From assembly GCA_046536795.1 (NCBI GenBank), contig JAWDMB010000003.1:35645-99644 (forward strand): 64,000 bases of DNA. The letters are read 5' to 3'. How positions within the stretch are numbered: position 1 is the first letter of the stretch; each line of letters opens with the position of its first letter. Shown here piece after piece: positions 4,733-61,244 of this stretch. The DNA is from Candidatus Micrarchaeota archaeon. GTDB lineage: Archaea; Micrarchaeota; Micrarchaeia; Micrarchaeales; CABMGC01. Made by a program: the position numbers and the translations under genes. The notes under the pieces were generated by a model. That model worked only from the letters and a program-made list of their open reading frames with translations, did not search any database and was not told the origin of the DNA.

Positions 4733-4818
4733 GCCGCAGTAGCTCAGTCCGGGAGAGCGTCCGGCTGAAGTCAAATATGGAAACCGGAATGTCGTCGGTT
4801 CAAATCCGACCTGCGGCA
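4733..4818 (+). tRNA. tRNA-Phe(GAA) with about 12-nt intron at 37/38
   Basis: GCCGCAG/CTGCGGC acceptor stem, TCCGG/CCGGA anticodon stem, CT-GAA-G followed by the insert TCAAATATGGAA, GTCGG-TTCAAAT-CCGAC T-arm. Confidence 0.92.
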
Positions 4819-28668: not shown

Positions 28669-28776
28669 AGCCCTGAGAGGGGATTGAACCCTCGACCTCC
28701 TGTTTTCCCGTTTCTTGATTAAACTTCTTCTTAAGAAGTTTACAAGACAGGCGCTCTACCACTGAGCTACCAGGGC
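28669..28776 (-). tRNA. tRNA-Thr(TGT) with 36-nt intron (28705-28740) at 37/38
   Basis: Reverse complement reads GCCCTGG...CCTGT-CT-TGT-A[intron]A-ACAGG...GAGGG-TTCAATC-CCCTC-TCAGGGC-T; U73 discriminator; BHB central helix CUUG/CGGG. Confidence 0.92.
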
Positions 28777-60727: not shown

Positions 60728-60784
60728 GGCATTCAAAAAGTAAAATTAAATATATTTATAGCTTTAGCTTGAAAACTTATATTA

Positions 60785-60905
60785 GGCGGGGTAGCTCAGG
60801 TGGTTAGAGCGCTAGACTCATAGGCAAAGCCTTATGAGTGATGAGCCTTTAGGCTATGATTGCTAAGAAATCTAGAGGTCGCGTGTTCGAATCCCGCCCC
60901 CGCCA
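60785..60905 (+). tRNA. tRNA-Met(CAT), probably elongator, with 47-nt intron (60823-60869)
   Basis: GGCGGGG/CCCCGCC acceptor stem (G1-C72), CTAGA-CTCATA[intron]A-TCTAG anticodon arm; BHB-like outer helix GCAA/TTGC; one T-stem mismatch. Ile2 identity is not fully excluded. Confidence 0.88.
60823..60869 (+). ncRNA. Candidate intron-encoded box C/D-type guide for tRNA-Met C34
   Basis: TATGAGT is antisense to the anticodon loop, followed by ATGA (D-like), the AGCCT/AGGCT hairpin and ATGATT (C-like). Confidence 0.55.
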
Positions 60906-60971
60906 AATTTTTTAATAGGATTGCTTTCTAAAAAATTGCACAAAACATATATAAATGCAAATTTTTAGTTA

Positions 60972-61244
60972 ATGATGAGATTTATGCAGAGCGACTTTGA
61001 TAGATTGTTAAAAGTTTGTAGGATAAGGCTCGATAAGGAAGAAAAGGAAAAAATGGAGAAGGAGCTAGAGGAAATAATAAAGTACTTTGATGTGCTTGAC
61101 TCTGTGAAAATCGAAGAAGTAAATGAGCAGCGTGCAAAGGTAGAAAGGTTAAGGAAAGATGAGGTTAAGCAATTTGATAATATTGAAGGCTTGCTCAAAA
61201 ATACAAAAACATACAGATTCTATGTTGTAGGACCGAAAGTATGA
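60972..61244 (+). CDS. gatC: Asp/Glu-tRNA amidotransferase subunit C
   Basis: CRIRLDKEEKEKMEKELEEIIKYFDVL...LRKDEV...FYVVGPKV; directly upstream of gatA. Confidence 0.85.
   Translation: MMRFMQSDFDRLLKVCRIRLDKEEKEKMEKELEEIIKYFDVLDSVKIEEVNEQRAKVERLRKDEVKQFDNIEGLLKNTKTYRFYVVGPKV

Follow-up and report, generated by a model that had tools for sequence, protein, structure and literature searches.

The elongator tRNA-Met (CAU) gene at positions 60785 to 60905 of the Candidatus Micrarchaeota archaeon DNA analyzed here (the window, 64,000 nucleotides in all) is interrupted by a 47-nt intron. On the basis of sequence comparison, we consider it probable, at about two chances in three, that this intron is a minimal box C/D-type guide, built on a single kink-turn, for 2'-O-methylation of the tRNA's own wobble nucleotide, C34. 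A self-guiding function had been proposed in the original prediction, and it is now supported by conservation of the fold, by the fixed distance between the C34 partner and the box that follows it (the N+5 register), and by the presence of the modification machinery in the host genome; methylation of C34 itself would be the expected outcome. The parts of the gene and of its intron are as follows (↓ marks an exon-intron boundary).

60785-60905, forward strand: elongator tRNA-Met (CAU) gene with intron (Rfam RF00005, 54 bits)
60785-60822 and 60870-60905, forward strand: 5' exon and 3' exon; class-I body, G1-C72, discriminator A
60823-60869, forward strand: intron, 47 nt, at the canonical position 37/38; the only placement giving a 7-nt CUCAUAA loop plus a splice motif
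60816-60822, forward strand: target strand, tRNA A31-A37, with C34 at 60819; invariant in 52 homologues except at position 37 (A or G)
60822-60832, forward strand: 5' hairpin A37-GGC/AAA/GCC-U, stacking on the guide:target helix; three of its four pairs covary
60829-60840, forward strand: guide strand, 12 nt, between the hairpin loop and the D-like box, with bulged U60833, antisense AUGAGU (60834-60839), and spacer G60840
60841-60844, forward strand: D'-like box AUGA, the nonbulged kink-turn strand, with G60843 and A60844 in two sheared G·A pairs
60845-60854, forward strand: kink-turn C-stem GCC/UUUA/GGC; first two pairs invariant, third covarying
60855-60862, forward strand: bulge UAU (60855-57), G60858 and A60859, and C'-like box AUGAUUG (60856-62); UGA at 60857-59 invariant
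60860-60869, forward strand: 3' tail, part of a relaxed bulge-helix-bulge; UUGC pairs with 60824-27 and UAAG with C32-A35; bulge AA↓A38

Anatomy and conservation of the guide fold

As originally noted, the segment TATGAGT (60833-60839) matches the reverse complement of ACTCATA (60816-60822, tRNA positions 31-37) at every base, and the chance expectation for a 7-nt exact complement within a 47-nt intron is approximately 0.0025 (41/4^7). Together with T60832, the antisense can form 8 bp with the spliced loop, as foreseen; the 9-bp cis hairpin envisaged for the precursor comprises instead 10 bp including a 1-nt bulge, with the pairing continuing past U60833 into the A37-GGC/GCC-U hairpin. The complete guide strand reads G-C-C-U-U-A-U-G-A-G-U-G, and 12 nt is the canonical inter-box spacer length in archaeal C/D small RNAs (sRNAs). 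Within it, G60836 pairs with C34 and is the fifth base upstream of the D-like ATGA (60841-60844), just as had been predicted. The substrate strand consists of A31-A37 plus the first three intron bases, and a triloop links it to the guide strand. The 5' hairpin thus resembles the distal half of a guide:substrate duplex of standard length formed in cis, which would account for the place of exon nucleotide 37 in a covarying pair.

Judged from its sequence, the segment 60841-60862 is a textbook kink-turn. Its nonbulged strand runs 5'-A-U-G-A-(stem) and its bulged strand (stem)-U-A-U-G-A-U-U, with sheared pairs G60858·A60844 and A60859·G60843 followed by U·U and U-A. The AGCCT-TT-AGGCT stem of the original prediction is present but realistically amounts to 3 bp (60845-47 with 60852-54) closed by a UUUA loop, since A60844 and U60855 lie outside it as members of the kink-turn. 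The C-like ATGATT at 60856-61 withstood scrutiny, comparison favoring the first of the two originally proposed readings, in which it forms a kink-turn with the D-like AUGA; the intervening stem covaries.

A BLAST query consisting of the whole gene returned full-length homologues from 55 of the 61 related genomes, covering 43 of the 45 genera of the order. The alignment (A1) contained 52 distinct homologue sequences, and box tetramers, box heptamers, and guide lengths were counted on 54 homologues. All share the layout A37↓(UGC nnn GCA)U-N-AUGAGU-NNN-GA-GC(loop)GC-NRU-GA-tail-AG-NN↓A38. Of the six antisense pairs, one is kept in 51 of 52 sequences and the other five never vary, such that 99.7% of the cells are paired with A31-U36. 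The spacing from antisense to GA is free of indels in 52/52, which places the C34 partner five bases before the D-like box in every case, and the guide strand is exactly 12 nt long in 49/54. The GA of the D-like box (60843-44) is invariant (52/52), as is the UGA of the C-like box (60857-59); around these cores the D-like tetramer is AUGA in 38/54, ACGA in 9/54, and something else in 7/54, and the C-like heptamer is RUGANNN, with RUGANGA in 25/54.

Covariation was evident in the stems on either side of the antisense. In the 5' hairpin, the first pair is A37-U in 38 sequences and G37-C in 5, and another is UA in 38, AU in 5, and GC in 4; the third pair of the kink-turn stem is AU in 25, CG in 9, UA in 7, and UG in 2. 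Across the full model, 97.4% of the cells are paired and seven pairs show changes on both sides. None of 500 shuffles reached the observed values for percentage paired, double-change pairs, doubly changed cells, or covariation score; controls with the register slid dropped to 19-44% paired, and RNAalifold, given the alignment alone, returned the same structure. The same comparison disposed of one earlier claim. The string GUGAUGA at 60838-44, which had been taken for a perfect box C, is present, but its first GA (60840-41) varies and the second GA is the invariant one, so we regard the resemblance as a chance match; the three bases preceding the invariant GA can be GAU, AAU, UAU, GAC, GGC, UAG, GCA, GUU, GAA, UUU, or AAC.

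The motif extends across the phylum and into other DPANN phyla, so the conservation that had been asked of it was borne out. A covariance model of the arm plus intron (R1) matched, under strict filters, in 207 of 301 genomes sampled across the phylum and in 133 of the 176 high-quality ones. An exact-pattern scan of named genomes returned overwhelmingly metagenome-assembled genomes (MAGs) of Candidatus Micrarchaeota, including Ca. Micrarchaeum sp. A_DKE, whose tRNA-Met gene has the same intron (L098), and Ca. Fermentimicrarchaeum limneticum; further matches lay in MAGs labeled Nanoarchaeota, Woesearchaeota, Aenigmatarchaeota, and Anstonellales, and one evident chance match lay in a bacterium.

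Two observations on other homologues may be recorded here. Five more distant loci (L072, L077, L116, L118, and L128) in MAGs labeled Woesearchaeota, "Methanosarcinales," or archaeon have a longer 3' intron part ending in AGCGCUAGAA, a same-sense repeat of the exon D-stem/anticodon-stem sequence AGCGCUAGA. This repeat is a possible competitor for the anticodon stem's 3' strand, and the GCUAAGAA tail of the window's intron looks like a remnant of it. In addition, a partial second tRNA-Met copy (L060, G031:C29:23350-23500) lies ~1.2 kb from the full gene of that genome and has the hairpin 3' strand, antisense, kink-turn, tail, and 3' exon without a 5' exon; possible readings are a pseudogene, the residue of a duplication, and the 3' half of a split tRNA.

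Splicing, machinery, and related introns

The splice helix of the window's gene consists of C32-G60867, U33-A60866, the mismatch C34·A60865, and A35-U60864, flanked by the bulges UA↓G and AA↓A, with an inner helix of 60824-27 and 60860-63. Among the homologues, C32-G is kept in 51/51 and U33-A in 48, with 3 GU pairs in addition, whereas C34 is paired in 23/50 and A35 in 28/50; a strict hBHBh' motif thus holds only partly. Because only the first two pairs are constant and the inner helix is confined to the window's own family, the splice motif is, by comparison of the sequences, of the relaxed (hBH/BHL) type. Such a motif fits a multi-unit EndA (PMC3239211). The host EndA is a single 392-aa frame with two endonuclease-domain matches, like the three-unit epsilon2 enzyme of ARMAN-2, which cleaves both strict and relaxed motifs (PMC3239211), and RtcB is encoded as well. 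For the window's anticodon arm plus intron, the calculated fold energy was -15.0 kcal/mol for the guide fold versus -3.3 to -5.8 kcal/mol for the splice fold, making the guide fold ~9 kcal/mol more stable. Both folds need C32-A35 and so cannot coexist, in agreement with the mutual exclusivity that had been proposed.

The host genome (760 kb, 38% G+C, 94% complete) encodes fibrillarin (PF01269, 273.9 bits), Nop5 (PF01798, 191.4 bits), and L7Ae (PF01248, 98.8 bits), the last in a family with two genes; the proteins whose absence would have spoken against a guide are all there. Fibrillarin was detected in 293 of the 301 genomes of the phylum. The enzyme is therefore retained in these reduced genomes, and its near-universality makes a test of co-occurrence between intron and enzyme uninformative.

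The same design recurs in two other tRNA genes of the host. In the tRNA-Ser(UGA) gene (C1:34491-34615), the parts of a 40-nt intron follow one another as in tRNA-Met, with canonical boxes: a hairpin that includes G37 is followed by U-UCAAGA-G-CUGA-UUA-GUGAUGC, a layout kept in 30/30 relatives. Here the target nucleotide varies together with the guide, nucleotide 34 and the N+5 guide base being U:A in 28 relatives and C:G in 2 (tRNA-Ser-CGA) with no mismatch. The tRNA-Trp gene (C1:253726-253862) has a 64-nt intron with two D-then-C kink-turn modules. The first, NUGA-GC(loop)GC-GAUGAU, is present in 30/30 relatives; next comes a 12-nt stretch with UYUGGAR, paired to U33-G37 and the initial bases of the intron, and after it NNGA, a short loop, and RUGA, with the C34 partner five bases before this second NNGA in 23/30 relatives. 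The first 12-nt stretch of the tRNA-Trp intron is AUGUUUAUAUUA. When the intron is read as a circle, and only then, the canonical order C-guide-D'-C'-guide-D appears, and for this reason it looks like a circularly permuted box C/D sRNA. That three anticodon loops each face a matching antisense in the same register beside a kink-turn is the strongest argument that the register matters.

Other tRNA genes of the genome gave further observations, most of its intron-bearing tRNAs being misnamed by standard finders. Two loci called Ser(tga) and Ser(cga) by ARAGORN (window 28669-28776 on the reverse strand and C2:112637-112742) were assigned by manual reading to tRNA-Thr(UGU) and tRNA-Thr(CGU); their introns, ~34-36 nt long, have no kink-turn. 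A tRNA-Phe(GAA) gene at window 4733-4818 has a 12-nt intron. A match resembling tRNA-Arg(UCU) (C1:54216-54274, 29.6 bits) ends inside the T-loop and may be a gene with a T-loop intron or a split gene. In all, 37 tRNAs were detected, and several are still hidden.

Comparison with known guide systems

The intron works like a box C/D guide in its anatomy and yet, by the same reading of its sequence, is not a standard member of the canonical box C/D sRNAs, because it lacks a second motif and the C-to-D order. It shares with them a kink-turn of C- and D-type boxes with sheared G·A pairs, the letters outside GA being degenerate, and an antisense of ~12 nt placed 5' of a D-type box with the target at the fifth base. 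In place of two motifs in the order C-guide-D'-C'-guide-D it has one motif, ordered D then C, and no second GA/RUGA pair is conserved in the homologue alignment. It likewise shares with the self-targeting tRNA-Trp type a guide that lies in a 37/38 intron and is complementary to the tRNA's own anticodon loop; the two guides of that type (for positions 34 and 39) in a complete sRNA are replaced by a single antisense element, and no complement to tRNA position 39 occurs in the tRNA-Met intron.

Searches for other kinds of guide gave little. No conserved ACA follows the motif, the tail being CGAGAA or UUGCUAAGAA, and an H/ACA guide was rejected on that ground. At a permissive E-value, Rfam matched only tRNA within the tRNA-Met gene, and a 9.5-bit match of Rfam sR12 to a GAGUGAUGAGC string was dismissed as noise. 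A regular-expression scan of the genome for a stand-alone guide, in which ATGAGNNNNGA would be accompanied by a CUGA box or have a C box upstream, gave no convincing candidate, although the scan was crude and is no sRNA finder; its matches look like coding sequence.

Compared by description, the closest precedent is the intron RNA of elongator tRNA-Met in Nanoarchaeum equitans. As portrayed in the passages of Randau (2012, Genome Biol 13:R63, PMC3491384) that deal with it, this 66-nt intron is an RNA both stable and abundant that has C- and D-like boxes and for which a guide role was proposed. The two introns thus share a host tRNA, a DPANN host, C- and D-like boxes, and a proposed part in methylation. 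The N. equitans intron is longer and has a consensus box D, a mutated box C, and a GC hairpin, and those passages name no target (PMC3491384), whereas the Micrarchaeota intron has 47 nt, one kink-turn, and the D-then-C order, with its own C34 as the target and the register defined by comparison. An intron-borne guide in this tRNA is accordingly less new than the original prediction implied, the N. equitans case having been published in 2012 (PMC3491384, in the passages just mentioned).

The intron of euryarchaeal pre-tRNA-Trp is an established box C/D guide for 2'-O-methylation of C34 (Cm34) and of U39 (Um39) (Clouet d'Orval 2001; Singh 2004; summarized in the relevant parts of the reviews PMC7994747 and PMC5372725). 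The tRNA-Met intron resembles it in lying inside the 37/38 intron of its own target, in directing Cm34 (here a prediction), and in having guide and splice folds as alternatives. According to the same summaries, the tRNA-Trp intron is a complete two-motif sRNA (C, D', C', D) of ~60-105 nt whose two guides, for C34 and U39, were shown to act in trans; the Micrarchaeota intron has one motif and one guide, lacks a terminal C/D stem, and sits in a different tRNA. In H. volcanii, Cm34 of elongator tRNA-Met is made on the intron-containing precursor by a separate box C/D RNA (as related in PMC5372725, citing Joardar 2011). Nucleotide, tRNA species, and form of the substrate are therefore the same as proposed here, and the difference is that the H. 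volcanii guide is a separate gene acting in trans whereas the Micrarchaeota guide would lie inside its substrate's own intron.

At the level of the motif, the intron resembles the C'/D' kink-loop or kink-turn of sRNAs and the synthetic half-mers, with a D-type box, a short loop or stem, a C-type box, tandem sheared G·A pairs, and a guide 5' of the D-type box. To our knowledge, the C'/D' motif of natural sRNAs is always accompanied by a terminal C/D kink-turn. Half-mer box C/D RNAs are laboratory constructs used in structural work, whereas the single-motif form in Micrarchaeota is natural and conserved. No description of a single-kink-turn self-targeting form, or of its spread, was found in the literature searched.

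Identity of the tRNA and explanations for the intron

ARAGORN run without introns missed the gene at 60785-60905, and with introns it returned tRNA-Ser(cga) with an intron at position 36, a miscall that corresponds to an intron shifted by 3 nt. The serine assignment was ruled out by the class-I body and by a splice motif that fits 37/38 only; the sequence gives an anticodon stem of CUAGA/UCUAG and a loop of CUCAUA-intron-A. The initiator tRNA is a distinct gene at C1:103929 with A1-U72, three G-C pairs closing the anticodon stem, and a CUCAUAA loop. With a CAU anticodon, and with an amino acid that cannot be read from the sequence alone, the gene could in principle encode tRNA-Ile2, whose C34 would receive agmatidine rather than a methyl group, but we give this hardly any credence. 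The TiaS domain (PF08489) had no match in the host genome while four archaeal control genomes scored, C1:153720 is a candidate tRNA-Ile(UAU) with a good splice motif and an acceptor stem as in tRNA-Ile(GAU), and use of tRNA-Ile(UAU) has been published for ARMAN-2 (PMC3239211). The tRNA-Ile2 identity was therefore rejected, as the original prediction had wished to see settled, and with a separate initiator, no TiaS match, and a tRNA-Ile(UAU) candidate in hand we conclude from the sequence that the gene is that of elongator tRNA-Met.

In the C1:153720-153809 locus itself, read as tRNA-Ile(UAU), the intron is 15 nt long and the splice helix at 37/38 is a clean one of 4 bp. ARMAN-2, also a Micrarchaeon, has a published pre-tRNA-Ile(UAU) (PMC3239211); with TiaS missing as well, the locus suggests reading of AUA through a UAU anticodon, the arrangement published for ARMAN-2 and N. 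equitans. Around the tRNA-Met gene, an AT-rich, TATA-like element (ATATATTTATA, window 60750-60760) lies ~25-35 nt upstream and a T6 run (window 60908-60913) begins 3 nt past the end, a layout that fits an independently transcribed archaeal unit. Downstream, the next open reading frame starts near 60976 and is GatC-like by eye.

Several features weigh against a methylation guide. Only 6-7 bp of the duplex involve the exon, the other 4 being made with the intron's own 5' end, and the tRNA-Met intron has a single kink-turn. In vitro, archaeal box C/D ribonucleoproteins (RNPs) are as a rule fully active only with both C/D and C'/D' motifs, but some half-mer constructs show activity. In tRNA-Met the antisense is paired with an invariant anticodon loop, which leaves its helix no room to covary, and covariation comes only from the flanking stems and from the tRNA-Ser introns. 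The D-like box is conserved only in its GA, the rest being AUGA, ACGA, AAGA, and so on rather than CUGA, and the anticodon complement AUG overlaps the RUGA/AUGA letters, so that the resemblance to a box is partly forced by the anticodon.

In an alternative explanation, the kink-turn would be only a structural or chaperone element bound by L7Ae or another kink-turn protein, and the antisense would serve to mask the anticodon loop or to time splicing, with no methyl transfer. A kink-turn and an anticodon-masking helix are what is actually shown, the advantage of ~9 kcal/mol for the guide fold makes a protein-controlled switch plausible, and one kink-turn with 6-7 exon bp is weak for a canonical box C/D RNP. 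We nevertheless judge this explanation unlikely, though the strongest of the rivals, because it accounts neither for the fixed N+5 distance between the C34 partner and GA in 52/52 sequences nor for the 12-nt guide strand in 49/54, nor for nucleotide 34 standing at N+5 in the introns of tRNA-Ser (30/30, covarying) and tRNA-Trp (23/30). Somewhat less probable again is that the excised and probably circular intron is the functional form and acts mainly in trans on a target other than its own precursor, such as C34 of initiator tRNA-Met or an rRNA site. The initiator at C1:103929 has the same CUCAUAA loop, with which UUAUGAGU could pair over 8 bp with one G·U; RtcB is present; action in trans has been demonstrated for the guide in the H. 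volcanii tRNA-Trp intron (PMC5372725, PMC7994747); and the N. equitans intron accumulates as a stable RNA (in the pertinent passages of PMC3491384). Covariation of the hairpin that contains exon nucleotide 37 (A37-U to G37-C, 5 sequences) argues that a cis fold of the precursor has been selected, and action in trans would in any case refine the self-guide explanation rather than exclude it.

That the complement is the usual exon-intron pairing of a bulge-helix-bulge, with boxes accidental in AT-rich sequence, is very improbable and already contradicted by the comparative data. It is true that archaeal 37/38 introns normally carry an anticodon-loop complement, that GTGATGA at 60838 is indeed accidental, its first GA varying, and that Rfam finds only tRNA. 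Against this, the splice helix uses another segment (60864-67), AUGAGU being a second, stronger complement that splicing does not need, and the kink-turn residues are invariant and the stem covaries across the phylum.

If the intron is a self-directed guide, the precursor would first adopt its preferred fold, in which A31-U36 pair with AUGAGU and the helix continues into the 4-bp hairpin, as the calculated fold and its conservation indicate. The guide duplex would form on a 12-nt strand abutting the D-like NNGA box, and this box, the short capped stem, the 3-nt bulge, and the C-like RUGA would make up the kink-turn, a conserved motif. L7Ae would be expected, from the anatomy and the known archaeal box C/D mechanism, to bind the kink-turn and recruit Nop5-fibrillarin, and fibrillarin would methylate C34, the partner of the guide base five positions upstream of the box. 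Release or remodeling of the RNP would then allow the weaker, mutually exclusive relaxed bulge-helix-bulge to form, the multi-unit EndA would cut it, and RtcB would join the exons and probably circularize the intron. Once free, the intron could in addition work in trans; the initiator tRNA, with its CUCAUAA loop, is one possible target. Cm34 is thought to lock C34 onto G and so prevent AUA reading (PMC7668247); made by the intron, it would limit C34 to pairing with G and guard AUG decoding from misreading of AUA.

More broadly, and tentatively, since we would put it somewhat short of even odds from the sequences compared, the introns of tRNA-Met, tRNA-Ser(UGA/CGA), and tRNA-Trp may form a Micrarchaeota/DPANN family of natural half-mer guides, each with a single kink-turn and a 12-nt guide strand capped by a hairpin, that methylate their own nucleotide 34 in cis, with modification gating splicing because guide and splice folds exclude each other. 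Were this so, the introns would be retained because they are the modification machinery. Manufacture of Cm34 by the tRNA-Met intron would mean that one kink-turn and a 12-nt strand suffice in nature for fibrillarin targeting, which bears on the minimal box C/D RNP. It would also explain in terms of selection why genomes of ~0.8 Mb retain a tRNA intron, namely as a guide that keeps AUG and AUA decoding apart in organisms whose AUA appears to be read by a separate tRNA-Ile(UAU). The exclusive folds suggest a built-in order, modification and then splicing, that would amount to a quality-control mechanism. The tRNA-Ser and tRNA-Trp introns of the same genomes show the design to be general, one missed by standard sRNA finders in tRNA genes that ARAGORN misnames.

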